Positions 2,303-64,000 of a stretch of DNA of 64,000 nt are shown here, piece after piece; the first letter of the stretch is position 1, and every line of letters starts with the position of its first letter. This DNA is from Vicingus serpentipes (GTDB taxonomy: Bacteria; Bacteroidota; Bacteroidia; Flavobacteriales_E; Vicingaceae), in contig JAGFIT010000074.1 of NCBI GenBank assembly GCA_024103385.1, forward strand, positions 45,766 to 109,765, given 5' to 3'. The notes under the pieces were generated by a model, which saw only the letters and a list, made by a program, of their open reading frames with translations, ran no database searches and was not told the origin of the DNA. The position numbers were made by a program, and so were the translations under genes.

Positions 2303-2340
2303 TTTATTATATTTAAAACTGAATTTTCAAACATAAAGTC

Positions 2341-3846: not shown

Positions 3847-3868
3847 CCAATCATACTTAATAAATTTA

Positions 3869-3902
3869 AAACCTCATTAGTTTTCACTAATGAGGTTTTT
3901 TT
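3869..3902 (+). terminator. Rho-independent terminator after gldJ
   Basis: Perfect 12-bp stem aaacctcattag / ctaatgaggttt (3869..3880 and 3887..3898), a 6-nt loop, then a T-run. The track's murF ORF starts inside it, which argues for the later murF start. Confidence 0.7.
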
Positions 3903-3913
3903 ATGTTTACAAA

Positions 3914-6902: not shown

Positions 6903-6955
6903 GTTATTTTATCTTCAATTAAAAATGCATTTCTGAAAACACATTCCCTCTATGA

Positions 6956-8896
6956 CTAGGCTAAAGCTTTATTCTCTTTATTTATTAAAGATTTTGACGT
7001 TTTAACAATAGCCTCAGCATCGTAGCAACATTCTTTATATAATTCTGATTGGGTACCATGTTCAATAAATTCATCAGGAATTCCTAAACGGACAACCTCG
7101 GCATGATAATGATGGTCCGCCATAAACTCTATAATAGCACTTCCCATCCCTCCCATTAAACATCCATCCTCTAGCGTAATTACTTTAGTAAATTTTCCAA
7201 ACACTTCGTGCAATAGGATTTCATCAATGGGTTTTACAAATCTCATGTCGTAATGTGCAACAGACACACCGTCTCTTTCTAATTCTTTTATTGCCTTTAT
7301 TGCTTCGTTACCGATAGCTCCAATACTCAATATCGCAAGGTCAACTCCAATTTTAATTCTTCTTCCTGTTCCTATTTTCAGTTTTTTAAATGGTTTTTTC
7401 CAGTCAATCATAACCCCCTTCCCTCTTGGGTAACGAATAGAAAATGGTCCTTTCTGTTCTTCTGTTTGAGCGGTATACATTAAATTTCTTAATTCTTCCT
7501 CATTCATAGGTGCAGAGACAATCATATTGGGAATAGCTCTTAAGTACGCTAAATCATAAGCTCCATGATGAGTTGCCCCATCAGCACCAACTAACCCTCC
7601 TCTATCCAAACAAAATACAACTGGTAATTTTTGTAATGCAACATCATGGATGACTTGATCATAGGCTCTTTGCATAAAAGAGGAATAAATATTACAAAAT
7701 GGAATCAATCCTTGTGCTGCCATTCCTGCAGAGAATGTTACTGCATGTTGTTCAGCAATTCCAACATCAAACGATCTATCTGGCATCGCTTCCATCATAA
7801 TATTTAACGAACAACCTGAAGGCATTGCAGGTGTTACTCCTACTATTTTTTTATTTTTCTCAGCCAATTCAACAATCGTATGACCAAAAACATCTTGATA
7901 TTTAGGCGGTTCAGGACTCTTTGGAGTTATCTTAATAATTTCTCCTGTATCTTTATTAAACAACCCAGGAGCATGCCATTGTGTGGAATCACCATCTTCA
8001 GCTGGCTGATATCCTTTTCCTTTTTCTGTAATACAATGTAAAATTTTTGGTCCGGGGATATCTTTTAAATCTTCTAAAACCTTTGTTAAATAATTCACGT
8101 CATGCCCATCAACTGGACCAAAATATCTGAAATTTAGGGATTCAAAAAGATTACTTTGCTTAAGTATGGTAGATTTTATTCCGTTTTCAATTTTTTGAAC
8201 AATAGCCTGAGCATTGGGTCCAAATTTGCTCATTTTCCCTAATAAATGCCATACCTCATCTTTTACCTTATTGTAAGTGTGAGATGTTGTTATATCTGTT
8301 AAATATTCTTTTAATGCACCAACATTAGGATCTATAGCCATGCAGTTGTCATTCAAAATAACCAACAAATTGGTATTCTCAACCCCTCCATGATTCATTC
8401 CTTCAAAGGCTAAACCAGCAGTCATTGAACCATCTCCAATAATAGCAACATGCTGTCTCTTTTCTTTTTTTATGTTATCGGCAACAGCCATTCCTAATGC
8501 TGCTGAAATAGAAGTGGATGAATGACCCACAGCAAAGGTATCATACTCACTTTCTGATGGCTTAGGAAAACCACTAATTCCTTTATATAGTCTATTCGTA
8601 TGAAATTGTTCCCTCCTACCTGTAAGAATTTTGTGTCCATATGCTTGATGACCCACATCCCAAACCAACTTATCATCAGGAGTATTAAAAACATAATGTA
8701 AGGCAACTGTCAACTCTACCACTCCTAAGCTTGCACCAAAATGCCCTCCTTGCTGAGAAACTACATCAATAATAAAATCCCTCAATTCATTACATAATTG
8801 AGGTAAATCGTCTTCGAGAATTTTATCTCTTAAGTCTTGAGGAATATTTATTTGCTTTAAAAGCTCACCTGTTTTATAATCAGCCATGTAATACAA
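6956..8896 (-). CDS. dxs: 1-deoxy-D-xylulose-5-phosphate synthase
   Basis: [38 protein letters not shown], the thiamine-diphosphate (TPP) motif [17 protein letters not shown], and the transketolase C-terminal half. The start could be M1 (8896) or M4 (8887). Confidence 0.95.
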
Positions 8897-38575: not shown

Positions 38576-38953
38576 CTACATTATCTTTTTTAATTCTGAG
38601 ACTATTTGTTCTTCATTAACATCAAACTTAGAGATAAAACCATCGGCACCACTCTCTTTCATTCTTTTTCTAAATGAGTAATGGTCTAATGAAGAGAAAG
38701 CTATTACTTTTATATGAGGATAATATTTTTTTATGTTCTCAGTCGCTTCAAAACCATCAATAAATTTCATGATGACATCAATAAAAACTATATCTACTTT
38801 ATTTTTTTCTAGAAAAGGGATTACTTCTCCTCCATCAGAACATTCTCCTACAATATTTATATTCGGGATGTTATTCAAAAAAACTCTAAATGATGACCTA
38901 ATAGAAGAATTATCATCTACTATAAGTACGTCTATCGTTTTATTTAATTTCAT
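38576..38953 (-). CDS. Stand-alone response regulator receiver (CheY-like) protein
   Basis: 125 aa. DVLIVDDN, a phospho-acceptor context DIVFIDVIM, and no output domain. Confidence 0.85.
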   Translation of the reverse strand: MKLNKTIDVLIVDDNSSIRSSFRVFLNNIPNINIVGECSDGGEVIPFLEKNKVDIVFIDVIMKFIDGFEATENIKKYYPHIKVIAFSSLDHYSFRKRMKESGADGFISKFDVNEEQIVSELKKIM

Positions 38954-39145
38954 GATTTAAAATTAAGAATGTTCAATTTATTTTTTTAATAGCGTTCTTT
39001 TTCGATTAATACCCTTTTTTTATTTAACGGTCATATTTTAGACGCTTTTGTGCATTTTACCACATAGCAGTAGAATTATTTTTACCTTTTAGAGTCTTTT
39101 ATCAACCTTATTTCACGTTCATCAAAAATAATAAAAATTATCATA

Positions 39146-39196
39146 TTGACAATTATTATACCTAATTGACAACTTATTATTAGCTATAATTGTCAA
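39146..39196 (+). promoter_or_regulatory. Three TTGACAA-core boxes (candidate operator/promoter) in front of the XRE regulator
   Basis: TTGACAATTAT (39146..39156), TTGACAACTTA (39166..39176, a direct copy 20 bp later), and ATAATTGTCAA (39186..39196, an inverted copy ending 1 nt before the ATG). Confidence 0.45.
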
Positions 39197-39197
39197 A

Positions 39198-39542
39198 ATG
39201 GATATTGGAAAGAAAATAAAGGTATTAAGAGCTCAAAAAGGAATTAGTCAACAAGAGTTAGCTGACTCCATCAATAAAACACGTACTTTAATTTCTCACA
39301 TTGAAGTTACCTCAAAAGTTAATTATTATACATTAACAGAAATCGCTAACGCTATAGATGTTACACTTGCTTACTTTACTGAAGAACCTTCCAATAATAA
39401 AATAGTAAATGAAGAAAAAGTTGAATATGCTAGCCTAGCAAAAAAGATAGAAAAGTTAGAACGTGAAAATGAATTACTAAATGAAATTATCCAAAATCAA
39501 AAAGAAATAATTACTCAATTAAAAGATAAGCTTACTCAATAA
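39198..39542 (+). CDS. XRE-family helix-turn-helix transcriptional regulator with C-terminal coiled coil
   Basis: IKVLRAQKGISQQELADSINKTRTLISHIE (HTH_3 pattern), and a leucine/glutamate-rich tail. Confidence 0.85.
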   Translation: MDIGKKIKVLRAQKGISQQELADSINKTRTLISHIEVTSKVNYYTLTEIANAIDVTLAYFTEEPSNNKIVNEEKVEYASLAKKIEKLERENELLNEIIQNQKEIITQLKDKLTQ

Positions 39543-39910: not shown

Positions 39911-41902
39911 ATGAAAAAGTATTTACTATTTGCTTTTACATTAGGATTGATATCTTCTGCAGGCGCTCAAAACAAAAATGCTGCTGCTCGTTATGATTTC
40001 AACAAATTTGCATTTATTGACGATGATTCTCAAAATCAACTGATTAAACCTATTTCTATTCCTTATGATAAAGCATCATCTAAAATTCCTATCGGAACTT
40101 CTTACAACATCTATGGCATTTTAGGTGACAGACAAAATCAAGTGGTATATAATGCCGCTACAAATACCGTTGCTTTCGTTCATAGACAAAACAACGGTGG
40201 TTCTGGTCCTGCTGGAAAAGAAAGTGGAGTAATGTCATTTGATTATTCTACAGATGGAGGAGCCACTTGGACGGTAAACCCATTTCAAACCACGCCTACT
40301 TTAGGTGGTTTTAATGGGAACAGGTATCCAAATATTGGACTTTATAATCCGACAAGTAATACAGATCCTGCTAATGCATTCTTAATACAGGTTGGTCCTG
40401 CATTAGATCTTTTGGCTGGTGAATCTCAGTGGACTAGAACTTTTCGATCTTCATTCAAATTAGATGGCTCTAATTTAGAAGAGACTTACTCCTACAACTC
40501 TATTTTAGGCCCGAATAATGATCCTAATGATTGGGCTGCAGCTGGTTTATTTGTAAATGCGCAAGGTCACGCATGGTATGTTTCTACAACTTTTAACAAT
40601 CAAGGTCCTTTAGGTTCTGAAAACCCAGCATACAACGTTGCTGGAGATCTTCATGATTATTTCTTACATAAAGGTGTTTTCAATGCTGGTAATAATAATT
40701 TTGATTGGACAACAGTAGATACTATCACACCTAACTGGTATACGACTAGTGTTGACGGTACTTCAGGAGGAGCAAAAGTTAATGTTGCTGGATTAGCTAA
40801 CATGGCATGGTCTCCTAATGGAATGGTAGGTTATATGGTAGCTATGGGTGCTGATTCTAACGCTAATCAAAACACACAAATCAGACCTTATGTAGTAAAA
40901 ACAACAGACGCTGGTGTCACATGGAATAAAGTGGCTGATTTTGATTTTTCTACCGATTTTACTATTAATTGTGGATTAAGACCTATAGCCACTACTGGAG
41001 CAAAGAGAACATTCTTTAGCGCTTATGATATGGTAGTTGATGCCAATGGAGAATTAAGAATTTTTGCCAATGTTAGATCAGGTTTTTCTGATCATCCTGA
41101 TTCTTTGAATTATTTTTATAGTTTTTATGGAACAGGAAACCTTTTGTACGAAGTAGCTACAAAAGGATCAGGATGGGAAGTTACTTATATTGACTCTATT
41201 TATGTGGCAGATTTTGAGTGGGATGCAACAAATACTCTAAGTCATTATGTTAGACCTCAAGCTGCAAGAAGTCAAGATGGAACGAAAGTATTTTATACCT
41301 GGTTAACCACTGATCCTTTACTTAGTCTAGATAGAGAATTCCTTAACATGTCAGCTGTAGGACACGACATTAACACAGATAAATGGACTCCTGTTACCGA
41401 CTTAACTGTGGGTGTATCTGGAGCCGAATATGTTACCGCATACCCTACTATTGCTGTTGAGACCATTGAAAATGGAAGTGATAAAGAATACGAAATAGCA
41501 ACTGTTTTTGCTACTGATTTTAGCACTCAAGCTGATGTAACAAATGGACAAAACCCTACTCAATGGAACTTCTTAAAAGGAGTTGGTTTTGATCAAGCTG
41601 ATTTTACTAGAGATACCGTTAACCTTTGTGCTTTAGCTAATAGTATCGATGATAATAACAATATTAATGATATCAGTATCTCTGTTTACCCTAATCCAAC
41701 AAATGGAATTTTAGATATCCAATTAAGCACTAATGCTTTCAACTACACGATTACTGATATTGTTGGGAATATTATTGCAAACGATAATGTTGTTGGAGGA
41801 AAAACAACTATTGATCTTTCAAACAATGCCTTAGGTGTTTATTTAGTAACTATCAATACTGAAAATGGTTCAACAACCAAAAAAGTGCTATTAACTAAAT
41901 AA
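39911..41902 (+). CDS. Secreted BNR/Asp-box repeat protein with T9SS type-A C-terminal sorting domain
   Basis: Signal peptide MKKYLLFAFTLGLISSAGAQ. Asp-boxes STDGGATW and TTDAGVTW. C-terminus ISVYPNPTNGILDIQL..GVYLVTINTENGSTTKKVLLTK. Confidence 0.75.
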   Translation: MKKYLLFAFTLGLISSAGAQNKNAAARYDFNKFAFIDDDSQNQLIKPISIPYDKASSKIPIGTSYNIYGILGDRQNQVVYNAATNTVAFVHRQNNGGSGPAGKESGVMSFDYSTDGGATWTVNPFQTTPTLGGFNGNRYPNIGLYNPTSNTDPANAFLIQVGPALDLLAGESQWTRTFRSSFKLDGSNLEETYSYNSILGPNNDPNDWAAAGLFVNAQGHAWYVSTTFNNQGPLGSENPAYNVAGDLHDYFLHKGVFNAGNNNFDWTTVDTITPNWYTTSVDGTSGGAKVNVAGLANMAWSPNGMVGYMVAMGADSNANQNTQIRPYVVKTTDAGVTWNKVADFDFSTDFTINCGLRPIATTGAKRTFFSAYDMVVDANGELRIFANVRSGFSDHPDSLNYFYSFYGTGNLLYEVATKGSGWEVTYIDSIYVADFEWDATNTLSHYVRPQAARSQDGTKVFYTWLTTDPLLSLDREFLNMSAVGHDINTDKWTPVTDLTVGVSGAEYVTAYPTIAVETIENGSDKEYEIATVFATDFSTQADVTNGQNPTQWNFLKGVGFDQADFTRDTVNLCALANSIDDNNNINDISISVYPNPTNGILDIQLSTNAFNYTITDIVGNIIANDNVVGGKTTIDLSNNALGVYLVTINTENGSTTKKVLLTK

Positions 41903-51777: not shown

Positions 51778-54700
51778 TTATTTAAAATTATATTGCACTT
51801 TACTAACTACTCGATCCCCATTCTGAGTTTCTTTATAAGTCGCAATAATATTTCCTGCATTATCATACTCATATCGAGTATAAAAGTTGTCATTACTAAT
51901 CGTAGCTTTTACTATACCTAATCGTTCATCATAAACATATCCTGTAAACTGTGCATCAACTGGGTGAACCACTAAATCATCAAAATAAGCTACTCCGCCT
52001 GACCCGGGGTTTTCGACATAAACTCTAAAGTCGTTATCATTACTTCCTCCTGATGAAACATAATTAGAAGGAACATCAAACGTTAAGTTTAATTGTATCC
52101 AATCTCCTATTTGTAATCCATTCGGACTATCTCTTCTTATTGTTTTATTGTCTGTTACATTTCCATCCAATTTAAATACGAGTTGAGCATCATCTGGGCT
52201 ATCTTTGTGGACCCACACACTCGCCATATAAGTTCGCCCCACTTGAATTCCTTGTTCAAATGTTTCATCCTCAACAGTAGTATTATCTACAATGGCTTTA
52301 AAAATTGGTCCCTCACTCGAAGTGGGTACTTCTACCATATAATCTCCAGTATGTGGTACAACAGTTCCTACTGTAGTTTTTTGCACTCCACTTCCTTTTT
52401 CCACCTCTCCGTCAAAATGAAATAAACTGGTTTCTACTTCTTTGGTACTTTCAAATCCAGAATATGCAAAACTGGTATAATTACAATTAGATACTTCAGC
52501 TATTTTATAACGTTCATCATAACCAAATTTAATAGCAGAATAGCCATCTTTCGTATCTTTTTTTTCTAATCGTTTATCTCCATTTTTTCCTCCATACAAA
52601 GTACTACTGGTTAATAATTTCCATGTACCTCCGTTATTTATCAATAGATTAACAGGAGAAAACACACCGCTTTCTATAGATGTTGCATATTTATCATTCA
52701 CATCATCCCATGCTCTAACTAAAAGATCATTGTCCCAATCATATTTTTTACCACTACCATTACTTTCTGTTTCTTGCTGAATCGGAGTTAAAATATTTAA
52801 GTTCGACCAATCATCTGTTTTTGCTCCCATACTCGAGTTGGATTCATAAGCAAAACTTTTGGCAAGGATATTTTTATTATATCCAGATGTTTGAGAAGTT
52901 ATTAACCTTGGCTGCCCAGTAAAATTATCTCTTCCATCATAAGTAATAATAGTGGTGATTCCATTCATCACTCTTGTTTCTTTTTTTAGATGTGTTATAA
53001 TGTTTGTTCTAGAAAAAATATTTTTAAATACTTTCCATTTATTAATACCGGTTTGAAAATCATCATATTTATAAAAAACTTCCTGAACAGTTCCTATAGG
53101 TCCAGACGTTTCATCACTATATTCATAATCTGTTTTTGACACAATAGCACCATTGTCATCGTAATTAATTATATTTTTTGGTTGACCAAAGCCAGATTTT
53201 GAGAACATTTTGGTTACCCCTAATTCATAATCAATAATTTTACCATTAACTATTTTTGTAACTTCTTCTTTAGAAACATGAGGGCGGTAAAGGTTTAAAT
53301 AGTTTTTATAATTATGCTCTATTGAACCAATATTAGATTGTTCATCACCAATAAATACTTTAACTTTGGAGTAACCGACTGTAGGAGCAGGAGCATGCCG
53401 ATCTCCGGCATGAGTAGATTTTATTAATGTATAACCATTACTACGTTGATACCTGTCCGGTTCTACCGTAGCAATTCCTTGCTCATAAGAATAAGTTAAT
53501 TTATATTCCGCTGCTGAATGAGGATCGGTTAAAGAAATCTCTTTCACTCGAGTACCGCCTCCATACACCTCTTTTAAGATGAGCTCTTTATATTGATCTC
53601 CATAAGCCGAAAATGTATTCGTGCTGATAGCATTACCATTAGCACTGTATAAATCAATATTGTCTTCTTCTGAACTTTTAAAAATTCTTGTTGGAGCTAA
53701 AGGGAAGTTATATTTGACGTTATCATAAACCACTCCATTATAGGTGTCCGATTCATATTCAACATTGATTTCTCCTCCTGATGGTGTGGTTATCTCACTT
53801 AAAGACCATGCATCTACCTGATCGTCATCTGCTGAAGTAATGTATTGGTCTCTTAAGGTTGAATTATGATTCGCTTGATAAAATCCAAAAATATCTTGTT
53901 TTTCATGTGTGTAATCAGGGTTCTCAGTATTGTATTCAAATAAGTAGGGATCTTGTGTTTGGTGATGATTTAAATCAAACATGGTTACCTTATTTAAGGT
54001 CAATTTACCACTCATGTCTAAACTTCCGCTAGTGGATGAATAAGAACCATCTTTATAGACTTCATATGACCCTCCACTATAGGTAAAATTAGTAGGTGTT
54101 TCATTAAAAGTATTGTTAATATTATTGGGCATTTTTTTGGCTAAATGATAATCATAATCAAAATCTATAATTTTTAGCGCATTGTTCTCTATAGCTGTTT
54201 GATAATAAGCATAATCTTCCACGGTTAATATATCTGTCACATTGGCAACTGTTTCTAAATCTTCTGTAAAAGCGGTACTTTCTGCATCCTGTGGAGAACT
54301 AAATATATTATTATTTTCAACATCATCGTTATCCATTAAAACAATATATTTTAAGTAGAGTTTTGGTGTGTATACGGAAGAATCATTCGCTACACTGTGA
54401 TCATCATTTCGAATCCCTTTTATAAAATAAGCGGTTTGTGTAGCTGTTTGTATTGATTCTGGATAATAAACCTGAGAACTACCTTTAGTAATAGAACCAC
54501 TAGGAGCATATTCTTCAACACCTTCTATAAATGAAGTGTTATTTTCGGATGTAAAATCAGGATAAAAATTATAATAGGGGAACCTCCAGTCAAATTTTTC
54601 TGTCCACTTGGAATAATTAATTCTAATCCAATAGCCTTTATCTCCGTCATCAGGAATATTATTTTCATTAGTATCTTCATAATAAGGACCCGTAATAGCT

Positions 54701-55860
54701 GTTAATTTCCAAGTATAGGCATACTTCTTATTTTTAGTATGTTTACTTACCTTTTTTATAGAAGTATAATCCATATTTTCTGTTTCGAAAACAACTATTT
54801 CATCATCATAAGTATATACTGGTAATGAATAATGATACATCATTCCATTAGGAGTGGTTATATTAAAAGCTTCTATACCATCAGGGTCATATTTATCAGG
54901 ATCTAATCTTTCAGAAGTACTAGAAGCAAAATAATGGGCCTTATAATCTAAGAATTTTTCATGTGGGTAATATACAGTTTCTTGCATACGATATATATCA
55001 CTATTAGTAAAGAATTGAATAAAATTTCCTGCATCGAAACCAATATTGTAGTGGTAAGGAGCTTGAACTTTTTTATCTTTTATTTTCCATGTCCTCCCTA
55101 TATTATAATTTCCTGATGAGGGTTCTAAATAACTGGTCAGTTTAAGATTGTCGGTTACCCTCATAAAGTTAGTCAGATCTTCATCAATTGCTATATTAGC
55201 CATAGGTTCATTAACAAATCTAAACATGGGTTTTTCATAAAAAAATTTAATATCTCTATAACTATCTGATCCTGAGTAAGGATAATATTCAGCAAAATCG
55301 AACAGAAACGGACGCATTAACCCTGAGATACTCGGACCACTGACATAATAATCATCATAATCAGGAAAAATAAAAGGAGTATCTTCACTTTTTAATCCTC
55401 TTTTAGTAGCGTATAAATCCATCTTTGAATAACGGCCTTCTTTAAAAGGATATAGTCCACCAAAATACATGGGACCATAAACATTAGAAAGAGAGGCTGT
55501 AGTCCATTGATTAGAAATAGGAACAAGCAATTGGCTTTTTAACTCAACGTTATTGTGATCATCAGGTATCCCTTTAACTTGTCTTGTTATTTCTCCAATA
55601 TTTAAATTCCACCCTAAACCTACCCATGTGGCTTGTTGATTTACAGATATTCCTCCTGCATACCCCAAATTTAAAGGAAAGCTCTCACCATTGGGGCCAC
55701 TTACTGTTATTAAAGGAATATTATAACTAAAATCTCCTGTAAAGGGATTGACATGATTGGATAGCTGCTTTGCAGGCGCATCTACTTTTTCTTCTTGTGC
55801 ATTTAGCTGAAAAGCTATTGTTATTGCTAATAGTGCAAAGGTGGTTTTTATTAAATTCAT
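51778..55860 (-). CDS. Large secreted protein with SpvB/TcB-like N-terminal domain and YD-repeat-like C-terminus
   Basis: Signal peptide MNLIKTTFALLAITIAFQLNAQ. NPFTGDFSYNIPLITVSGPNGESFPLNLGYAGGISVNQQATWVGLGWNLNIGEITRQVKGIPDD resembles the SpvB/TcdB N-terminal motif (..LSLPLPIS.GRG..P.F.L.Y.S..GN..FGLGW.....I.RR...G.P.Y). Ends ..YTRYEYDNAGNIIATYKETQNGDRV. No RHS core (DPxGL) and no T9SS CTD were recognised. Confidence 0.6.
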   Translation of the reverse strand: MNLIKTTFALLAITIAFQLNAQEEKVDAPAKQLSNHVNPFTGDFSYNIPLITVSGPNGESFPLNLGYAGGISVNQQATWVGLGWNLNIGEITRQVKGIPDDHNNVELKSQLLVPISNQWTTASLSNVYGPMYFGGLYPFKEGRYSKMDLYATKRGLKSEDTPFIFPDYDDYYVSGPSISGLMRPFLFDFAEYYPYSGSDSYRDIKFFYEKPMFRFVNEPMANIAIDEDLTNFMRVTDNLKLTSYLEPSSGNYNIGRTWKIKDKKVQAPYHYNIGFDAGNFIQFFTNSDIYRMQETVYYPHEKFLDYKAHYFASSTSERLDPDKYDPDGIEAFNITTPNGMMYHYSLPVYTYDDEIVVFETENMDYTSIKKVSKHTKNKKYAYTWKLTAITGPYYEDTNENNIPDDGDKGYWIRINYSKWTEKFDWRFPYYNFYPDFTSENNTSFIEGVEEYAPSGSITKGSSQVYYPESIQTATQTAYFIKGIRNDDHSVANDSSVYTPKLYLKYIVLMDNDDVENNNIFSSPQDAESTAFTEDLETVANVTDILTVEDYAYYQTAIENNALKIIDFDYDYHLAKKMPNNINNTFNETPTNFTYSGGSYEVYKDGSYSSTSGSLDMSGKLTLNKVTMFDLNHHQTQDPYLFEYNTENPDYTHEKQDIFGFYQANHNSTLRDQYITSADDDQVDAWSLSEITTPSGGEINVEYESDTYNGVVYDNVKYNFPLAPTRIFKSSEEDNIDLYSANGNAISTNTFSAYGDQYKELILKEVYGGGTRVKEISLTDPHSAAEYKLTYSYEQGIATVEPDRYQRSNGYTLIKSTHAGDRHAPAPTVGYSKVKVFIGDEQSNIGSIEHNYKNYLNLYRPHVSKEEVTKIVNGKIIDYELGVTKMFSKSGFGQPKNIINYDDNGAIVSKTDYEYSDETSGPIGTVQEVFYKYDDFQTGINKWKVFKNIFSRTNIITHLKKETRVMNGITTIITYDGRDNFTGQPRLITSQTSGYNKNILAKSFAYESNSSMGAKTDDWSNLNILTPIQQETESNGSGKKYDWDNDLLVRAWDDVNDKYATSIESGVFSPVNLLINNGGTWKLLTSSTLYGGKNGDKRLEKKDTKDGYSAIKFGYDERYKIAEVSNCNYTSFAYSGFESTKEVETSLFHFDGEVEKGSGVQKTTVGTVVPHTGDYMVEVPTSSEGPIFKAIVDNTTVEDETFEQGIQVGRTYMASVWVHKDSPDDAQLVFKLDGNVTDNKTIRRDSPNGLQIGDWIQLNLTFDVPSNYVSSGGSNDNDFRVYVENPGSGGVAYFDDLVVHPVDAQFTGYVYDERLGIVKATISNDNFYTRYEYDNAGNIIATYKETQNGDRVVSKVQYNFK

Positions 55861-55885
55861 TCTTATGATATTATCAATTATTATT

Positions 55886-57628
55886 CTATTCTTTTATGAT
55901 CTTTTTTACTACTCTTTCGTTAGACGTGATGATTTCTATAAAATAAACTCCTGGTTTTAAGTTTTCTAACACCACTTCTCTATTTCTAGTCGTCTTTTCA
56001 AAAAGTTGTTGTCCCGTTACATCAACTATTTTAATGGTTATTAAATCATCATTATCTAAACCGTTGATATACAATCTTTCTTTTACAGGGTTTGGAAAAA
56101 CTACCACCTCTTTTCCTTTCTTATTTTTAGTCAAAATTCCTGTTGTAGTACAACCTAAACTATTATTGGCGTATAAATTTTTTATTTCATCTACATATTG
56201 AATAAATAAATTTTTACCTATAGACACTCCGGGGCTATTACTTTGTGCAAAGACGTAAGCCAGCTCTATTTGTTGAATAGCTCCAGGTGAAAATGTAACA
56301 GGGCCCATGCTTCCTACGCTTTTATTATCACTAGCCAATAAAGTATTATCATCTTTGTCCCAAGAGGAAGATGAAGTAGTGTACCCATTTGTTCCATACC
56401 CTGTAGGGTCTGATGATCCAGGGTAAACAAAACGAGCACGATAATTCCCTGGGTGAGCCCAAGGTGCATAACCCATATTCCCATAATAAAGTAGACTACC
56501 ATCTGCCCAAACTGCATTCATAATACCATGTAATTGGTAATCCGTATTAGGTAAATCACGCCATGTTGCTCCATCCCATGGTATTAAAGCTTGATACATA
56601 AATGAAGTCATTCCTAAGCGTTCGTTATCATTAATACCATCTCCAAAACCGATACCATTCGGACTAGCTGATATAGCATTATCATTTCCATCGGCATCCA
56701 TCCATGGTCCAGATAAAATCACCACTCCTTGTGTGGGGTGGTAATTTCCATAACCCAACGTTGCACCGGAGTTATCATCAGGTCCATTTTCATCAAATTG
56801 AAAGTAGCAACCCCTAGTTACATCACATTGTACATATTCATTGTATGCATTTCCAATGTCTATGTCTGTCCATGCTCCAAAGTAAAAATCGTTGTAAGTA
56901 GTGGTGCTTCGGTTAATAATCTTATACTCCACAAAAACGGTATTGTTTAATGATGGGGTTCCATTGCAACTATAGGCGTATACCATTTGATGTATTTCTA
57001 CTCCTATGGGTGTTCCTCCACTCCATTGATGGGTAGTGTAGTCGTTATAAATGGTATAGGTAGCCACATCTCCTTTTATTTTAGGGTAATCTCCATCAAC
57101 CGGAAAATAGAAATTATCATTATCTACATCTACAAATGGAGCTAAATTTTGCGCATAACCTAAACTAATATCTCCGTGTGCCGGCCAATCTTCAATATCT
57201 TGAGGTACAACATAACCAGGATCATTAATCGCCCCTGTTTTAACAGCTATGTGGTAATCTATTTCTGCTTGGGTGACTTTCCATACCCTGTCGTATTCTA
57301 ACCGTATGGTAGGAGTAGTTGTTCCCGAAAGGGTTAACGGACCGCTGCTAAAGTCAGTACTGTCTGCATAATAAGTACTTGCTGCCAAATGAGTAGCATT
57401 GCCCAACCATAAATTGGCAGCATATACACTATGTTTACCACTTCCTTTAGGTGCTTCAAAACCAGGGGTTTGTTGGCTAGGATCACCAAATAAAAAGCCT
57501 TTGGTGTTTACCTGTGCGTTAATGTTGTTGGCATCCAGTTGTTGGGAAGATTGTGAAAACCCCAATTGAACATTGAAAAACAAAACAGTAATAACTAGGG
57601 TTATTAATTTATTATAATCTTTATTCAT
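55886..57628 (-). CDS. Secreted protein of unknown function with T9SS type-A C-terminal sorting domain
   Basis: Signal peptide. C-terminus VVVFPNPVKERLYINGL..IKIVDVTGQQLF..LKPGVYFIEIITSNERVVKKIIKE. Confidence 0.75.
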   Translation of the reverse strand: MNKDYNKLITLVITVLFFNVQLGFSQSSQQLDANNINAQVNTKGFLFGDPSQQTPGFEAPKGSGKHSVYAANLWLGNATHLAASTYYADSTDFSSGPLTLSGTTTPTIRLEYDRVWKVTQAEIDYHIAVKTGAINDPGYVVPQDIEDWPAHGDISLGYAQNLAPFVDVDNDNFYFPVDGDYPKIKGDVATYTIYNDYTTHQWSGGTPIGVEIHQMVYAYSCNGTPSLNNTVFVEYKIINRSTTTYNDFYFGAWTDIDIGNAYNEYVQCDVTRGCYFQFDENGPDDNSGATLGYGNYHPTQGVVILSGPWMDADGNDNAISASPNGIGFGDGINDNERLGMTSFMYQALIPWDGATWRDLPNTDYQLHGIMNAVWADGSLLYYGNMGYAPWAHPGNYRARFVYPGSSDPTGYGTNGYTTSSSSWDKDDNTLLASDNKSVGSMGPVTFSPGAIQQIELAYVFAQSNSPGVSIGKNLFIQYVDEIKNLYANNSLGCTTTGILTKNKKGKEVVVFPNPVKERLYINGLDNDDLITIKIVDVTGQQLFEKTTRNREVVLENLKPGVYFIEIITSNERVVKKIIKE

Positions 57629-58043
57629 GATTTGTGCTACATTTTTTTAATATTTCAATTTTTTGAAGGTTTGTCATGTCAAGAAATTTTTCATGAATTA
57701 ACGTGTAGTACTTTTCTCTATATGTTCCTTTCTGTTTCTTATTCCATTTTCCACTCTGTAAATAAGAACCTACGTCTTCAAGTAAAGTTATTTCTTCATC
57801 CTTTAGTAAGGAAATATTAACACTACTATCTTTAACATTAATGTCATAAGAGAAAGAAAGCTGTTTATAAGAAGAATTGCTTTTTTGAAGAATAAAATAA
57901 AAATACCCATGTTCTATTTTTTTATAATAAGTCTTTATCAAAACCTTTTCTTCAACTTGCTCCTTGCATGTCGCATTAGAAATAAACATTACTGATAAAA
58001 ATATAAGTGACTTCATTTTTTTATTTAAAGTAAGAATTCCCAT
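57621..58043 (-). CDS. Small exported hypothetical protein
   Basis: 140 aa with a signal-like MKSLIFLSVMFISNATC. Its stop overlaps the start of the downstream T9SS cargo gene by 8 nt. Confidence 0.5.
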   Translation of the reverse strand: MGILTLNKKMKSLIFLSVMFISNATCKEQVEEKVLIKTYYKKIEHGYFYFILQKSNSSYKQLSFSYDINVKDSSVNISLLKDEEITLLEDVGSYLQSGKWNKKQKGTYREKYYTLIHEKFLDMTNLQKIEILKKCSTNHE

Positions 58044-58045
58044 TA

Positions 58046-58360
58046 TTATTCGTCTAGTTCTTTTTTTACTGTAATTGCTTTTATCTTCATATACTCTTCC
58101 TCTGTTAAATCATATTCATAACTTCGAGAAATATCAATAAGTCGAGTTTTAGTCAGTAATAGACAAAAACATTCATTAGAATTACATATTTCTACTACCA
58201 TTTCTATTCCTGACACCTTTTGTTGATGATGTTTTTGAGGTTTAAATTCTTTTAAAATATCACTTAACTCTAACAGTTTTTCTTTACTCAATAGATCCTT
58301 ATTTTCCTTTAATTTAAAATAGGACGCTCTTAGACTCATTGTCGTTACCAACTTTATCAA
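58046..58360 (-). CDS. Small cytoplasmic hypothetical protein
   Basis: 104 aa from a TTG start (97 aa from ATG 58339). No signal peptide. Ends 2 nt before the next gene. Confidence 0.45.
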   Translation of the reverse strand: MIKLVTTMSLRASYFKLKENKDLLSKEKLLELSDILKEFKPQKHHQQKVSGIEMVVEICNSNECFCLLLTKTRLIDISRSYEYDLTEEEYMKIKAITVKKELDE

Positions 58361-58455
58361 AAGAATTGAAGCTATAGGATTCCTTAATTTCCATAAATGG
58401 CCAAATTTCTTTATTCAGTGTGCATGATGTTAGTATTATTATCAAAACAAATAAT

Positions 58456-59646
58456 TTATTCATAATTATTCCTAAATATTGTTTTATTCCCTGATGGTAT
58501 AAAATTATTTGTATCTATTTTCAACTCTTTTTCAATTTTTTTACTTTCTATATCAAGTAGTACCAATTTGAGATCAATACCTTCTCCCACTACTCCCACT
58601 AATTTTTCCTTTCCATATACATACTTAAAATTGTACATTTCTACAGAGTCTGTATAGTGACCGTAGGAAATAGGAACATTATTTATAGAATCAATAATCA
58701 ATTCAAGGGTATTATTTTCATAATTAAATTTATATATTTTATCGGTTTTGAATAATACATAAGGCTCTTTATAGTGCTGGGCAGATTTGCTAATTAAAGG
58801 GTTTAGATCAAGAACTTCTTTCATAGAACGGGATTTATATTCTTGACAAACATCTATTGTTATTTCTTCCATCCTTCCACTTTCTACATTAACTAACCCA
58901 TTAAAATTATTCTTATATGGCTTCCTATTGCTAATTACAGTATATTTCTCTTTAATACGTGTGTAATCTATACTTGGAGATTTTTTCTCCCACCAGTTAA
59001 GTTCCGTCTCAAACGAAATAAATAAATATTTACTATTAGGTATTAATATGATATCATAAATCCAACTAGTTATACAGTTGGTAGTTATTCTTCGAAGATT
59101 TTTTCCGTCAACCCCAATAGCAAATATGTCTTGGCATTTTTCTAAACTTTTCTCAATTTCTAAGGTGTCATTAAATAAAGCTCCTCCGATAAAATAGATA
59201 ATACTATCATTTTGACTAAAAATTACTTTAGTGATATATATATCTTCATCTATTAACTTATTACAATTAGTTCCATCTGAATCTATTATATATAATTTAT
59301 TATTTCCTCCAAAAATATTACCTCTTTTAAATATTATCTTTTTACCATTATGAGAAATTACAGGTGAAAAATCTGAATTCCCATCCTCTGTAATTTGTTT
59401 TAAAAATCCAGTATTAAGGTTTATACTACAGATAGCTCTTCCTTTTTTATTGTTATATGCAAAATAGATGTCATTATCTATAGAAACATCAATATCTGTA
59501 GGAAAAATTTGATTATCAATAACGGCTATTTGCTTATAGGGTTTTCCTCTATCATTAATAAAATTAACTGTTTCACATCCGAACAAAGCTATTCCTATCA
59601 ATAAAGCTATTACATATTTTAGTCGAAAGATTTCTATGATTACCAT
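58456..59646 (-). CDS. Lipoprotein with TolB/PD40-like beta-propeller motifs; candidate RHS immunity protein
   Basis: Lipobox LIGIALFGC. DGNSDFSPVISHNGKKIIFKR..LYIIDSDGTNCNKL and IFAIGVDGKNLRRIT resemble PD40 repeats. Its start overlaps the RHS stop in ATGGTAA (59640..59646). Confidence 0.6.
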   Translation of the reverse strand: MVIIEIFRLKYVIALLIGIALFGCETVNFINDRGKPYKQIAVIDNQIFPTDIDVSIDNDIYFAYNNKKGRAICSINLNTGFLKQITEDGNSDFSPVISHNGKKIIFKRGNIFGGNNKLYIIDSDGTNCNKLIDEDIYITKVIFSQNDSIIYFIGGALFNDTLEIEKSLEKCQDIFAIGVDGKNLRRITTNCITSWIYDIILIPNSKYLFISFETELNWWEKKSPSIDYTRIKEKYTVISNRKPYKNNFNGLVNVESGRMEEITIDVCQEYKSRSMKEVLDLNPLISKSAQHYKEPYVLFKTDKIYKFNYENNTLELIIDSINNVPISYGHYTDSVEMYNFKYVYGKEKLVGVVGEGIDLKLVLLDIESKKIEKELKIDTNNFIPSGNKTIFRNNYE

Positions 59647-62600
59647 CTTTTATATGTATATGGATATAAGGTTTTGATTGTTGTCGTTATCATAAATGAC
59701 GTTCGTATTAGTCTAGCACTATTAAGAACTTGTTGAGATGCCCCGCTTTGTATAATGGACGTCATCCCTTTTATTAAGGAATAATCAGCTGGTGTTACAT
59801 TTGTATTAAAGAGCACTCCCTTAATTCCATCTGCCCCTTTGTTAAAATAAGCTAAATCATGGTTAAACCCTCCAAAATTATCACCTAATCCATCTAATAT
59901 TCCTTTTTGTTTGTAAAAAAGAAATTCTTCTGGGGATATATTTTTTGGGCTATTTCCTGCATATTGAGCTGACCCTTTCTCTTTATTTAATACCTTATTT
60001 AATTTTGTGTCTGTTGCTTTATCATATATATTCTTAAGTTCTTCTTCGGAATAATTATTAGCGTTTCTATTCGCTGCTTTAAGTTTGTTTAAGCCTGTTA
60101 GAACATCAGAAAAATTTGCAGCAGCTCCCATACCATAAACAAAATTCTCAAATCCTGAATTTCCCTTTTCTAACAAGTACCCCCAATCATTTTGAGTAAA
60201 GTTATAAGAACCCACTCCAAATGAAACAGAAAAATTATGATTTCCAGTATAAGCACTAGTTCCTATGGATTGTATAGTTGATCCAGCAATTATCGCCATT
60301 GTATTTGCAAAAGGACCTCCAGCACTAGCTATTGCCGAACTAGCACCACCAGAAAGCCCTCCAACTACAGCCCCAGCAATCATAAACCCCCATGTTTTTT
60401 TAGAATGAAAATTCCAGTTTAATGGGTTAAAGCTACCATTAGCCGTAGTACCTCCTATGTATGCTCCTATGGCCGCACCAACAATAAGTGCTGTAACTAC
60501 AAACTCTCCATCAGGGTCAATACTACTTATCGGGTTATTCCCCATTGCCAAATAAGGAGAATAAAACTGGCTGGCAGGGTCGGTGGTGATCCAACGACCT
60601 AACCTAGCGTCCCATAAACGAGCTTCAAAATCATACAATCCGTTTTGGTCTAACTCTTTCCCCTGATAGCCATAGGTCAATAAGTTTACAGAACTAGTTA
60701 GGCTACGCCCAGGTAATATTCCTCCAAAAGGATAATAGTCGCCAGCACTAATTACTTGTAATGCCCCCGTATTTTCTCTAAAGGTTGCTCTTACATTACC
60801 CAAATGGTCATACAAATGGTAACGACTTGCCGAAGTAGAAGGATCATAAGACCCTAATTGGTTTAATCCATACAAATTATATTCTGTAACCGTTGTGCTA
60901 CCCACTACATCTTTATCATAAATACTTACCACTTGTCCTGATAAGTCTTGAACATAGTAAATTTCTTGAATAGGAGTAGTACCACCTGTTCCATTATAAA
61001 TTTCTTTCTTTATTCGTTTTCCTGCAGGATTGTATTTGAACTTTAAAAATAAATTCCCATTGAGCAATACCTCTTTAGCTAATCCACTTTGATAATAAGT
61101 ATAAGTCTTATTTTCTGAAGCATCTGCTGTTAATTCACCTATGGCATTATAAGTATAATTAGCTGCACTTTGAGTCTCTATATCTGAGGTGTAAGATGAA
61201 CTACTTACGCCATCTGTAACGTAAGTTAGCTGGTTATTCACTTTTACCACGTCTCCATCCTCTGATTGAGTGGTAGTAGTATAGTTATAAGTGAATTCAT
61301 CCATTCCTACACCAGTAGTGGTATTTCCATTTCTATCCAAAGCAGTAATATTTCCGTTTTTATCATAGGTGATGCCACTCACTTCAAATTGGCTATTGGC
61401 ATCTGCAACAAAACCTTCCCAATCACTCCCAACTACTTCGCTTTCATTTTGATTTCCAAAAGGCTCGTAAGTTCCAAATGTAGCTGATGCTAACCAATTA
61501 AAATCATTGTATTCGTATTGATAGACATTTTGTAATCCATAAGAAGTTAAGTTAGTAGATATAGAAGGGGCTTCTAAATTCCATCTTACTTGATTAATGG
61601 TACTTGTGAATTTTTCGTTGGTTCCTTCTCCGTAATTAATGTAAGTCCCTGTCCTTTTATAATCATCCACATGATAGTCGATGACCATGCCAAACACATC
61701 AGCAAATACCCCATTATTAGTAGGGCTATCAGCTCCTGGGTCTGAAAACACTCCATTTCCGGTAGCAATTCCTAAATTAGGGGAATTGATGGCCTTTAAT
61801 TTCCCTGTAACGGTATATACATAATCCACCCCTTGTAAATCATCACCTAACACCGTTCTTTTTAATGCTCCATGCTGATAATATTCGTAATTCGCCTGAA
61901 CATCATAATTGGTACCGTCTTCACTTGTTTCTACTTTAATGAGTTGTTGCTCTCCATTATAGGTGTTTTGATGTTCAAAGTATTCAGCATCGTCTTTTTG
62001 ATATATGGTTTTGGACACATTACCGGCTGCATCATATTCATAATGCATGGTCTTATATTCGTCCATATCAACTAGGTATTCTATCGTCCATATTACTCTT
62101 CCATACATATCGTAACTGTACCAAGTAATGCTATTGTCATTCCATACTTTAGATACTCTTCCCAACAAATAAGTTTGTTCATAAGTAGTGTAAGGTGATG
62201 TGTTAAATGGGTAATGCGAAGAAGATGAAACATCTGCTACATCATATAGGGTATATATTTGTTCTGAGCATCTTGCATCATCAATTCCATCCTCATCGTC
62301 CAACATACTCAACACAGAAACTTCTCCACCGCCCAAAGCAGGTTCTTCTTGGTAATTCTGAAATTGTAATGCTGCAGATTGACTGTAGTCATACACTCCT
62401 GTTTCTACCTCTCTTCCTGCTCTATCGTAGTTAACGTAGCTAAATATTTCATCTTGCTGCTGTTGTGCATTTTGCTGAAACCTGATTCTCCCTCGTGAAT
62501 CGTATACAAACTCAGTACTTCCTTTATCTGGTGTAGTTTCCTTTACTCGTTGGTCTAAAGCATCATACTCATAAGTATCTTCCATACCGTGGGAAATATT

Positions 62601-64000
62601 ATCGTTTGGCAAGGGTGCTGTGGTATGTGTCATATAAGTAAAGAAACGAAGGTACTTGGCAAATTGATGAGTTGGGTAAGAAGCATTGAAAGGTAAGAAA
62701 TAACCTGGAGATTGAGCTACCCATATGGATTTAATGTTGATTTCTATCCCTCCCGGATAATTGTTGAGTTCTTCATTATCAATGATAATATCAGGCAACC
62801 CTGCTAAAGAAGTTTGATCCCATAAATATTCACACTCACAGGTTTTGTAAAGTTTAGGATAAACAGCGTAAGTATAAGGAATCGTAGTTACACTTCCATC
62901 TGGATTCACATATCCTTTTCCTCCGCTGCCATTATCAATTAATATTTCTATATTAAAATTAAATGTTGCTACTAACTTCGGATCTACTCCATAACAAGGG
63001 TCTGGGGTCAATAAACAACTTCCACCTACATCAACTCCTGTTTCATCGCAATCCATAATTCCATTGCTACAATGACCATCATCCCCCCAAGGAATATCGC
63101 ATGGATCAGGAGGAGTATTCGTACTCGCTTCACTAATTATTCCTCCGTTATCTAAAACAACATTCCCATCTGTATCAACCAATACAAAAGAATTATCATT
63201 TTTAGGTTCTACCGGATAGTACCCTTCTGCTTCTATATCTTCGATGTAATCTTCATGATTGGTAATTATTGTTTGTAAATCCTGGTATTCTTCTATTAAA
63301 ATGGTTTTCTCATTTTTTAGTTTTGTTAATTCGATAACATTTCTACAAGCATTATTTACCCATGTAGGATCACTACTTTCTATACTGCCTGTGGTACCTA
63401 GCAGAGCATTTTCATCGGATACTATTTCTAGTACATTCTGACCACTCGCTTCATTCATTTCGCAATTGGCAATCAAGTAGGGAGTAGATGAGAGAAGGTA
63501 AGCATTAATATAGTTAGAGATTTGATCGTCTGTTCTAGCTATATTCCATACTCGAACATCAGAAATATTTCCTTTAAACGGATTTGAGTTGGTTTTTGAC
63601 AACCCTATTCTTAATGTTGACCCTGTAGTGATATCTGGAGAACCTGAGATAACCTTTGTCCCTAAAAGAAAACCATCTACATAAAATGAAAGCATAGTAT
63701 CTTCTCTAGTAATAGCGACATGATGACAAGTGCTGTCTAGAATAGTAGTATCAAGCGCTCCATTGTTTTCCAGATAATATTCCACCCCTTCCAATTGAAC
63801 TGCTAACATTTTGTATAGTGATGTGGTACCGGTGGTGTCTTTAAAGAAAAAAATGGCTCCTGTTGTATCCACCGTATTGTTACAAAATATAATTGGGTCA
63901 CTGCCAACACTATCTTCATCTGCTCTAATAGTTGCTTCAAAAGTAAAGTCCCCATCTTCAATGGTATCTATTATAGAGGGTGTTACATCAACTAGGTCAT
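59640..64000 (-). CDS. LamG-domain YD/RHS repeat polymorphic toxin (5' end beyond window) with 286-aa variable C-terminal domain
   Basis: The track 'start' at 63872 is an in-frame GTG. Hand translation stays open to position 64000 (..DFTFEATIRADEDSVGSDPIIFCNNTVDTTG..). LamG-like LSFYVDGF..ISDVRVWN. Many YD repeats (YEYDALDQR, YSYDMYGRV, YEYDAAGNV). RHS core end YGYQGKELDQNGLYDFEARLWDARLGRWITTDP..GNNPISSIDPDGEF at about 60501..60750. Confidence 0.9.
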   Translation of the reverse strand, partial: DLVDVTPSIIDTIEDGDFTFEATIRADEDSVGSDPIIFCNNTVDTTGAIFFFKDTTGTTSLYKMLAVQLEGVEYYLENNGALDTTILDSTCHHVAITREDTMLSFYVDGFLLGTKVISGSPDITTGSTLRIGLSKTNSNPFKGNISDVRVWNIARTDDQISNYINAYLLSSTPYLIANCEMNEASGQNVLEIVSDENALLGTTGSIESSDPTWVNNACRNVIELTKLKNEKTILIEEYQDLQTIITNHEDYIEDIEAEGYYPVEPKNDNSFVLVDTDGNVVLDNGGIISEASTNTPPDPCDIPWGDDGHCSNGIMDCDETGVDVGGSCLLTPDPCYGVDPKLVATFNFNIEILIDNGSGGKGYVNPDGSVTTIPYTYAVYPKLYKTCECEYLWDQTSLAGLPDIIIDNEELNNYPGGIEINIKSIWVAQSPGYFLPFNASYPTHQFAKYLRFFTYMTHTTAPLPNDNISHGMEDTYEYDALDQRVKETTPDKGSTEFVYDSRGRIRFQQNAQQQQDEIFSYVNYDRAGREVETGVYDYSQSAALQFQNYQEEPALGGGEVSVLSMLDDEDGIDDARCSEQIYTLYDVADVSSSSHYPFNTSPYTTYEQTYLLGRVSKVWNDNSITWYSYDMYGRVIWTIEYLVDMDEYKTMHYEYDAAGNVSKTIYQKDDAEYFEHQNTYNGEQQLIKVETSEDGTNYDVQANYEYYQHGALKRTVLGDDLQGVDYVYTVTGKLKAINSPNLGIATGNGVFSDPGADSPTNNGVFADVFGMVIDYHVDDYKRTGTYINYGEGTNEKFTSTINQVRWNLEAPSISTNLTSYGLQNVYQYEYNDFNWLASATFGTYEPFGNQNESEVVGSDWEGFVADANSQFEVSGITYDKNGNITALDRNGNTTTGVGMDEFTYNYTTTTQSEDGDVVKVNNQLTYVTDGVSSSSYTSDIETQSAANYTYNAIGELTADASENKTYTYYQSGLAKEVLLNGNLFLKFKYNPAGKRIKKEIYNGTGGTTPIQEIYYVQDLSGQVVSIYDKDVVGSTTVTEYNLYGLNQLGSYDPSTSASRYHLYDHLGNVRATFRENTGALQVISAGDYYPFGGILPGRSLTSSVNLLTYGYQGKELDQNGLYDFEARLWDARLGRWITTDPASQFYSPYLAMGNNPISSIDPDGEFVVTALIVGAAIGAYIGGTTANGSFNPLNWNFHSKKTWGFMIAGAVVGGLSGGASSAIASAGGPFANTMAIIAGSTIQSIGTSAYTGNHNFSVSFGVGSYNFTQNDWGYLLEKGNSGFENFVYGMGAAANFSDVLTGLNKLKAANRNANNYSEEELKNIYDKATDTKLNKVLNKEKGSAQYAGNSPKNISPEEFLFYKQKGILDGLGDNFGGFNHDLAYFNKGADGIKGVLFNTNVTPADYSLIKGMTSIIQSGASQQVLNSARLIRTSFMITTTIKTLYPYTYKRW

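Follow-up and report, generated by a model that had tools for sequence, protein, structure and literature searches.

A TcB-like shell protein gene linked to an RHS polymorphic-toxin gene in Vicingus serpentipes and its relatives across Bacteroidota

Introduction

Does the string of six minus-strand genes at the end of a 64,000-nucleotide stretch of the Vicingus serpentipes genome encode a relative of the Tc (toxin complex) toxins? The stretch (Bacteroidota; assembly GCA_024103385.1, contig JAGFIT010000074.1, positions 45,766–109,765), which was analyzed as a whole and is hereafter called the window, carries in this string the genes for an RHS protein with a variable C-terminal region and for a protein of 1360 amino acids (aa) with an SpvB-type N-terminal motif. 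Tc toxins are well-studied, insect-killing protein-injection devices, and the BC subcomplex of these devices (YenB/TcdB2/SepB with YenC/TccC3/SepC) is likewise encoded by a gene for an SpvB-type YD/RHS shell protein beside a gene for an RHS-core protein with a variable toxin.

The segment is, on balance, probably an RHS polymorphic-toxin locus of a Bacteroidota-wide, largely uncharacterised type with two functionally linked large genes. That the 1360-aa protein has a TcB-like fold and is a functional partner of the RHS protein is very likely. That the two proteins form a true two-component cocoon is a more tentative proposition, which may well hold but falls slightly short of being favored. 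The Tc-like two-gene module is real; it is probably Sec-exported, has no TcA and is apparently not based on type IX secretion (T9SS), and the window holds a rearranged, accessory-poor example of it.

The Tc literature that was retrieved concerns Proteobacteria and describes assembly in the cytoplasm, an injector (TcA) and release by lysis, which one report links to a type X secretion system (T10SS) (PMC10847048). A census of Tc loci makes no mention of Bacteroidetes (PMC7861908).

Linkage of TcB-like and RHS Genes Across Bacteroidota

Co-directional packing of six genes is by itself statistically unremarkable. The non-chance signal at this locus is the linkage of the 1360-aa, TcB-like family to RHS genes, which is kept in other genomes. 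The family is large: in an exhaustive search of representatives clustered at 50% identity, 4,889 reached E ≤ 1e-3 (1,060 of them E ≤ 1e-30), a word-indexed search gave 915 matches among the candidates that it scored, and a search of one genome per species found at least 584 stretches that encode relatives, with protein identities of 23–55%. Eighty of these stretches and six places with homologues from protein searches make up the 86 loci (83 non-redundant) in which open reading frames (ORFs) were called and searched with the proteins of the window, and in which all neighboring genes were clustered.

In 58 of the 83 non-redundant loci, the TcB-like gene has an RHS gene no more than 10 kb away, which is almost always encoded on the same strand and is usually its direct neighbor. 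A sequence-only reading of the window had proposed a search for such co-occurrence in other genomes, and this is what was found: among the 65 loci with at least 3 kb of downstream sequence, 50 have an RHS gene among the next three same-strand genes downstream of the TcB-like gene. Because these RHS genes lie just downstream, the usual order is TcB-like gene then RHS gene, like that of tcB–tcC. The RHS gene is the immediate next gene in 30 loci (gaps of −14 to +126 nt), and a small gene (family F16 or F23) often sits between the two. Where a locus has two RHS genes (L069, L036, and L055), the TcB-like gene is also present twice, one copy for each RHS gene. Fusions of TcB-like and RHS proteins were not present among the 86 loci.

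The window departs from this pattern. Its reversed order had been put forward as part of what distinguishes the system; this is true of the window, but it is not a defining trait of the family, in which the RHS gene lies upstream of the TcB-like gene in only 8 of 58 loci. The string of RHS gene, propeller lipoprotein gene, small ORF, T9SS cargo gene and TcB-like gene was found only in the nearest relatives, namely in L005/L006 and, with the homologue of the 580-aa T9SS cargo split in two, in L001/L007. The reversed, interrupted order of the window is a lineage-specific rearrangement.

In one of the loci with two pairs (L055, positions 3–8873), a second, partial protein with the SpvB-type motif is followed by a protein of 1895 aa, both upstream of the main TcB-like/RHS pair. 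This arrangement suggests tandem duplication of whole modules.

The 1360-aa TcB-like Protein

The 1360-aa protein is 100% identical to a “hypothetical protein” of the V. serpentipes metagenome-assembled genome. It consists, in order, of a Sec-type signal peptide, the SpvB-type motif, about 800 aa of long β-hairpins, a CBM-like domain and a terminal YD repeat. Structure prediction, which had been suggested as a check from the sequence alone, gave a confident model: the AlphaFold2 model of residues 1–1200, built from an alignment of 43 sequences, has a pLDDT of 85.5 and a pTM of 0.87 and is made up almost wholly of long β-hairpins. In a Foldseek comparison of this model with the PDB, the top eight matches were all TcB subunits or BC fusions (YenB 5kis_A and 4igl; TcdB2–TccC3 6suf, 6sup, and 4o9x; TcdB1 6l7i; YenTc 9c4k), with E values of 2.8e-14 to 2.2e-12 and a probability of 1.00. 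The cores of type VI secretion system (T6SS) Rhs proteins, teneurins and TcC chains ranked below the TcB chains. By these TcB matches, at TM-scores of about 0.2, the model has the β-hairpin half-shell fold of RHS/YD proteins.

The two ends of the protein agree with this assignment. The N-terminal motif contains NPFTGDFSYNIPL, WVGLGWNLNIGEITR, and PDD, and the isolated 80-aa N-terminus matches the SpvB profile PF03534 (E 3.6e-5; 23.6 bits, cutoff 22) over profile positions 1–60 of 287 only. Among 34 diverse family members, the N-terminus matches SpvB in 28 and DUF6531 in 24. At the other end, the terminal YD repeat is kept in the family consensus, and this segment is the best hhalign match of the family to TcC chains. 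The CBM-like domain is recognized weakly by PF02018 in the isolated C-terminal 240 aa (E 1.1e-3), and precomputed annotation places PF02018 on several homologues. Taken together, the SpvB-type motif and the predicted model, with TcB chains as its best matches, support the view that the 1360-aa protein is TcB-like.

The RHS Toxin and Its Candidate Immunity Lipoprotein

The RHS frame is open to base 64000, and the gene runs past the end of the window. The start proposed from the sequence alone, a GTG codon giving a product of 1410 aa, is an artefact of the window edge because the frame continues to the last base. The deposited protein (P0241; J5I47_10960, “hypothetical protein”) has 2207 aa, is 100% identical over the part inside the window and has its first 755 residues outside it. 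These include a Sec-type signal peptide (MFKRFITSLILLSLTTIGYSQ), DUF6443 (residues 205–295) and YD-like repeats as far as residue ~600. The middle of the protein is formed, in order, by an acidic coiled coil, LamG, a cysteine-rich stretch and the main RHS repeats, and there are two YD-type blocks with a total of about 1,100 aa.

The description of this protein as a TcC-like element, an RHS shell with a variable C-terminal domain, proved accurate. The protein matches YD_repeat_2x (E 1.6e-6), and its RHS-associated core matches TIGR03696 (E 1.3e-14) and ends in the DPxG autoproteolysis-type motif PISSIDPDGEF. The 288 residues that follow consist of about 80 aa of glycine-zipper-like hydrophobic helices and about 200 aa that match no recognisable family; in Pfam, this region had no significant match, with a trace of Gly-zipper_YMGG at E 0.11. 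PF15528, “polymorphic toxin type 23,” is present in relatives with 51–53% identity (P0243 and P0244) but was not found in the RHS protein of the window. Such swapping of C-termini is a hallmark of polymorphic toxins. The RHS protein combines all the features of this class, namely YD/RHS repeats, a TIGR03696 core, a DPxG motif, a variable C-terminus and a downstream candidate immunity gene. Orphan RHS C-terminal fragments were not found in the 64-kb window.

The stretch where the core ends and the hydrophobic helices begin (the first ~57 residues of the fragment 59643–60506) also matches the mosquito salivary gland surface protein SGS1 (8fjp_A, 2739–2793; E 7e-8).

The 396-aa lipoprotein encoded next to the RHS gene has weak TolB-propeller matches (E 6.6e-7). 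Its start overlaps the RHS stop, and its 386-aa homologue (E 1e-97) comes after the sole related RHS gene with the same C-terminal toxin domain (L005/L006). Because of this overlap and this co-variation with the toxin domain, the lipoprotein is likely to confer immunity to the C-terminal toxin of its own RHS partner, as judged from gene position and co-variation.

Accessory Genes of the Family

Two genes commonly precede the TcB-like gene in other genomes. A Skp-like protein (F2; OmpH E 3.5e-24, ~178 aa) is encoded directly upstream of it in 49 of 70 loci, and a lipoprotein (F1; ~200 aa, no Pfam match) in 50 of 70; both are found, for example, at positions 8738–9860 of L057. Furthermore, at least three genes similar to those of type II secretion systems (T2SS) or type IV pili occur within 10 kb of the TcB-like gene in 22 of the 83 loci. 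The set includes a secretin (E 5.5e-40), a T2SSE ATPase (E 2e-127), T2SSF (E 2.2e-43), pseudopilins and PilN- and PilO-like proteins, and is present in L057 (2376–8644), L066 (21126–24789), L002, L017, L020, L048, and others. Where it is present, this T2SS-like apparatus would be the most likely route of the pair across the outer membrane.

Arrays of paralogous secreted proteins of 230–680 aa (F4) are also common near TcB-like loci. Tandem F4 arrays flank many of these loci, such as L057 (1–2348 and 19689–23880), L060, L028, and L040; the proteins have a signal peptide, a motif of the type “GNVGIGT” and a faint match to YadA_head.

Relationship to Known Systems

The likeness to the Tc BC subcomplex lies in the composition of the gene pair, in the usual B-then-C order of the family and in the TcB chains that are the best structural matches. 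The differences are considerable. As the sequence-only reading had observed for the window, a TcA-like translocator is absent: the 86 loci contain no conserved family of large proteins other than the RHS and TcB-like ones, and the window contains none. A mid-N/mid-C propeller was not detected, and beyond the first ~60 residues of the SpvB motif, identity of the 1360-aa protein to TcB is at noise level. Both large proteins of the module carry Sec signal peptides, as read from their sequences (by a crude heuristic, 60 of 82 TcB-like and 32 of 43 RHS family proteins do so), whereas Tc toxins are released by T10SS-dependent lysis according to the report cited above (PMC10847048). The RHS proteins of the module have 1,250–2,200 aa or more, with DUF6443 and LamG N-terminal modules, compared with 973 aa in SepC and 961 aa in a Vibrio TcC. 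The accessory genes of the module family are those for the Skp-like chaperone, the lipoprotein and the T2SS-like apparatus. Finally, the candidate immunity gene that adjoins the RHS gene implies a bacterial target.

The proposal that no system of this composition had been described needs to be qualified. Literature on DUF6443, on Rhs proteins with T2SS and on Rhs proteins in Bacteroidota yielded no functional description of a TcB-like/RHS system. However, a cluster in Flavobacterium psychrophilum CC-ST10 (FPSM_02418–02439) has been noted in passing (Duchaud et al., 2018; PMC5808330), as an annotation without functional or family-level analysis. Judged from its description, from which the identity of its gene families is deduced, its composition is that of the wider TcB-like/RHS family; the window differs from it in having no T2SS, Skp-like or F1 genes. 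A study of the T2SS of Cytophaga hutchinsonii found no direct substrates, and Rhs proteins go unmentioned in it (PMC5553014).

Effectors of the T6SS (RhsA, Tse15, and Photorhabdus Rhs with Tre23) resemble the window RHS protein in having an RHS cocoon, a DPxG core, a variable toxin and an adjacent immunity gene, and they form the second tier of structural matches. T6SS Rhs proteins are, however, cytoplasmic, are loaded on VgrG/PAAR and close the cocoon alone, without a TcB-like partner, whereas the window RHS protein has a signal peptide; moreover, neither the Pfam matches of the window genes nor the neighborhood gene listings examined showed any PAAR, VgrG or T6SS gene. TANFOR toxins, for which a T9SS route was proposed from neighborhood enrichment, are likewise large polymorphic toxins of Bacteroidetes with variable C-terminal toxin domains and neighboring genes for T9SS cargo (PMC7073777), but have a TANFOR/Fn3 N-terminal scaffold and neither an RHS shell nor a TcB-like partner.

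Proposed Function of the TcB-like/RHS Pair

In the mechanism that we propose, both proteins would cross the inner membrane by Sec and would then come together, either in the periplasm or at the cell surface, in a BC-type device for encapsulation or presentation. The shell would surround the C-terminal toxin, which would be released from the RHS protein by autoproteolysis. The LamG and CBM-like domains may bind glycans of the target cell, and the hydrophobic helices of the toxin could aid its entry into the target membrane. A T2SS-like machine, where present, would move the complex over the outer membrane, and the 396-aa lipoprotein would protect the producer. Because a lipoprotein immunity gene is present, the target would be another bacterium.

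Several results weigh against a Tc-like reading of this kind. The full-length Pfam/NCBIfam scan of the 1360-aa protein gave no useful match, with no SpvB match even at E ≤ 10, and a 340-aa N-terminal fragment scored below the PF03534 cutoff (E 3.7e-4; 20.2 bits against 22). The SpvB-like N-terminus that had been claimed from the sequence gives a match above the cutoff in the isolated 80-aa fragment, not in the full-length protein. The search for TcdB_toxin_midN/midC that had been proposed with it found nothing: neither these domains nor an FG-GAP β-propeller gave a Pfam match at E ≤ 10 in the full-length 1360-aa protein or its fragments, and where the TcB propeller would sit, the model has long hairpins and helices and no short four-stranded blades. 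The TM-scores to TcB chains are about 0.2, with an rmsd of about 26 Å, values that reflect a local or architectural likeness with no global superposition; because they are this low, the likeness to TcB is called architectural here and not a rigid superposition. The 1360-aa family was also compared by hhalign with an alignment of three real TcB sequences (SepB from Serratia, a TcB from Vibrio and a BC fusion from Burkholderia). Three weak colinear matches were obtained (best E 2.3e-3, probability 12.5%), which pair the SpvB motif (40–99) with SepB 33–88 (E 2.3e-3), a mid-protein segment, and residues 1327–1347 with SepB 1345–1365 (E 0.14); with SepB alone, E was 0.14. Taken alone, these alignments are too weak to establish TcB homology by sequence. 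Searches of PDB sequences with the single 1360-aa protein, with the family profile and with the N-terminal profile returned nothing relevant. As for the cocoon, the ~1,100 aa of YD-type sequence in the RHS partner might close it alone, as in T6SS Rhs proteins. Profile hidden Markov models of 25 accessory families (the Skp-like protein, F1, F4, and all T2SS components among them) found no member in the six-frame ORFs of the window. Lastly, the tight 25-nt spacing of the 580-aa and 1360-aa genes recurs at 6–9 nt in two relatives and leaves room for a real link to T9SS cargo.

In the PDB sequence searches, Tektin and an ADP-ribosyl cyclase toxin appeared as matches at chance level and were rejected.

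The alternative that survives best, unlikely as we consider it to be, is that the 1360-aa family is an independent shell protein, a toxin-less YD-shell protein of the cell surface or periplasm such as a glycan-binding adhesin or an adaptor for secretion or anchoring, which aids the RHS protein in export or target recognition from outside the cocoon. The length of the YD-type sequence in the RHS protein is comparable to that of T6SS Rhs chains (~1,020–1,050 aa), which are self-closing according to the literature; the TcB-like protein has a CBM-like domain; a small gene of family F16 or F23 often separates the two large genes; and TcB-like/RHS fusions are missing from the 86 loci although BC fusions exist in Proteobacteria. 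On the other hand, TcB chains, half-shells that depend on TcC, gave the best structural matches, and the YD hairpin that is kept at the terminus, after the excursion into the CBM-like domain, is where TcB meets TcC. The strict one-to-one pairing and the overlapping stop and start codons further suggest a stoichiometric complex.

A bolder extension of the TcB-like/RHS partnership, doubtful at present, would make the pairs the native cargo of the poorly understood T2SS-like machine of Bacteroidota: a cocoon formed in the periplasm with the Skp-like chaperone and the lipoprotein would pass through the secretin to competitors with no need of TcA. If so, this would be a new delivery route for RHS toxins, a Sec-dependent, non-lytic relative of the Tc toxins, of which the window would be a reduced or rearranged member, exported perhaps by a T2SS encoded elsewhere in the genome or by means of a helper anchored through the T9SS, and the pairs would be candidate substrates for the T2SS of Bacteroidetes. 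Should the two proteins form a cocoon, BC-type encapsulation would not be tied to TcA, and how a shell of ~3,000 residues leaves a Gram-negative cell and hands over its toxin would become a testable question. At the level of the family, about 4,900 clusters (50% identity) of unannotated TcB-like proteins, paired one-to-one with RHS toxins, have barely been studied. The window itself is of more modest value, being rearranged and free of accessory genes, with a T9SS flavor that is apparently incidental.

The 580-aa T9SS Cargo and the T9SS Connection

The 580-aa protein, encoded between the RHS and 1360-aa genes, is a genuine T9SS type A cargo, as had been read from the sequence. It is deposited in the same V. 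serpentipes assembly as a “T9SS type A sorting domain-containing protein.” Its C-terminal domain (CTD) matches Por_Secre_tail (E 8.9e-13) and TIGR04183 (E 7e-13), superposes on T9SS-bound CTDs (8glk_D, TMt 0.82) and also matches CTD sequences in the PDB. Besides a signal peptide, the protein has ~500 aa of N-terminal domain with a β-supersandwich-like fold (AlphaFold2 model, pLDDT 87.4), which bears a weak resemblance to the N-domains found in sugar phosphorylases and lyases (E 6e-6, TM 0.3).

A T9SS-coupled Tc-like module, in which the 580-aa protein, secreted and anchored by the T9SS, brings in or displays the TcB-like/RHS complex on the cell surface, is nevertheless distinctly improbable. 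Apart from the bona fide type A CTD, this explanation draws on the position of the 580-aa gene, which lies 25 nt upstream of the TcB-like gene (6–9 nt in the two lineages that share the arrangement) and holds the slot taken in other loci by the Skp-like and lipoprotein genes, and on the TANFOR toxins, which have similarly been proposed as T9SS substrates (PMC7073777). However, the 580-aa family, with at least 388 homologues, follows the TcB-like genes poorly. A homologue is present in only 3 of ~83 non-redundant TcB-like loci, and three family members on long contigs (36–55% identity) lie in contexts of housekeeping genes or other T9SS cargo genes with no TcB-like or RHS gene near. No type A, B or C T9SS CTD was matched in the 1360-aa or the RHS protein, and the secretion genes linked across the TcB-like family are T2SS-like.

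Of the T9SS genes that had been pointed out in the same window, PorP/SprF (1178–2302, plus strand; E 3e-75) and GldJ (2341–3846, plus strand; E 7e-138) are indeed there, next to each other. They lie at the far end of the window, however, and the ~50 kb between them and the module contain MurF, RecJ, Dxs, NrdJ, PurL, AlaS, PheT, and other housekeeping genes. T9SS as a part of the module, as originally suggested, is thus not supported, given the unrelated contexts of the 580-aa family, the large proteins without CTDs, this distance and the T2SS-like linkage, and the 580-aa cargo is most likely a lineage-specific neighbor outside the module core.

A second type A CTD cargo is encoded in the window at 39911–41902 on the plus strand (663 aa; TIGR04183, E 1.3e-9) and is unrelated to the module.

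Organization of the Locus

The six genes and their features are listed in Table 1. The tight packing and the junctions that had been described from the sequence are all present in the ORF map: the 396-aa gene begins in the same ATGGTAA in which the RHS gene ends, a gap of 95 nt separates the 396-aa and 104-aa genes, the 104-aa and 140-aa genes are 2 nt apart, the 140-aa and 580-aa genes overlap by 8 nt, and 25 nt lie between the 580-aa and 1360-aa genes.

Table 1. Genes and protein features of the TcB-like/RHS locus in the window, with positions counted from the first base of the window.
Feature	Position	Strand	Basis
TcB-like shell protein gene J5I47_10935, 1360 aa	51778..55860	-	ORF map
Terminal YD/RHS-type repeat of 1360-aa protein, FYTRYEYDNAGNIIATYKE	51838..51885	-	PF05593, E 0.06
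CBM_4_9-like (jelly-roll) segment of 1360-aa protein, ~residues 1203–1266	52063..52254	-	PF02018, weak
SpvB-type N-terminal motif of 1360-aa protein, residues 38–101	55558..55749	-	PF03534 match on fragment
580-aa T9SS type A cargo gene J5I47_10940	55886..57628	-	ORF map
CTD of 580-aa protein, residues 510–578	55895-56101	-	TIGR04183, Por_Secre_tail
140-aa ORF, N-terminus lipoprotein-like	57621..58043	-	ORF map
104-aa ORF, TTG start	58046..58360	-	ORF map
396-aa lipoprotein gene, TolB/Tricorn-like β-propeller	58456..59646	-	ORF map
RHS polymorphic toxin gene J5I47_10960, 3′ 1452 codons of the gene for 2207 aa	59640..64000	-	Frame open to window end
Variable C-terminal toxin region of RHS protein, 288 aa	59643..60506	-	Position after core
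RHS-associated core of RHS protein, ends PISSIDPDGEF	60507..60737	-	TIGR03696, E 1.3e-14
LamG domain of RHS protein	63516-63965	-	Laminin_G_3, E 7e-20

Conservation of the genes downstream of the lipoprotein gene, which the sequence-only reading had treated as a quartet (104, 140, 580, and 1360 aa), did not extend to all of them: for the 104-aa and 140-aa ORFs, which are putative genes, no homologue was found in the 86 related loci even at E ≤ 10 and no match in Pfam/NCBIfam, and the 580-aa homologue is as rare as stated above. The GC content is ~25–28% across the 396-, 104-, and 140-aa genes (25.5% in the 140-aa ORF and 27.3% in the 104-aa ORF; region 58000–60000), compared with 35–37% in the RHS gene. 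This low-GC stretch would fit a horizontally exchanged immunity cassette. A scan of 51.5–60.2 kb for sigma-70 promoters and terminators gave no enrichment, the sigma-70 model being uninformative for Bacteroidota promoters.

Coincidental adjacency, in which an ordinary RHS toxin–immunity pair lies beside unrelated genes with no module, is highly improbable: although the two large genes of the window are 3.8 kb apart with four genes between them, two of which lack homologues in the fetched loci, and although the promoter and terminator scans were uninformative, RHS genes lie within 10 kb in 58 of the 83 loci where a few percent would be expected from RHS density (an estimate, not a computed value), the gene order of the window recurs in L005/L006, and protein identities of 23–55% argue against copies of a single mobile element.

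Elsewhere in the window, two small unrelated families (F25 and F28) match ORFs at 38576–38956 on the minus strand and 39150–39542 on the plus strand; a few other genomes have members of both families in the vicinity of their TcB-like loci, but this match is probably incidental.

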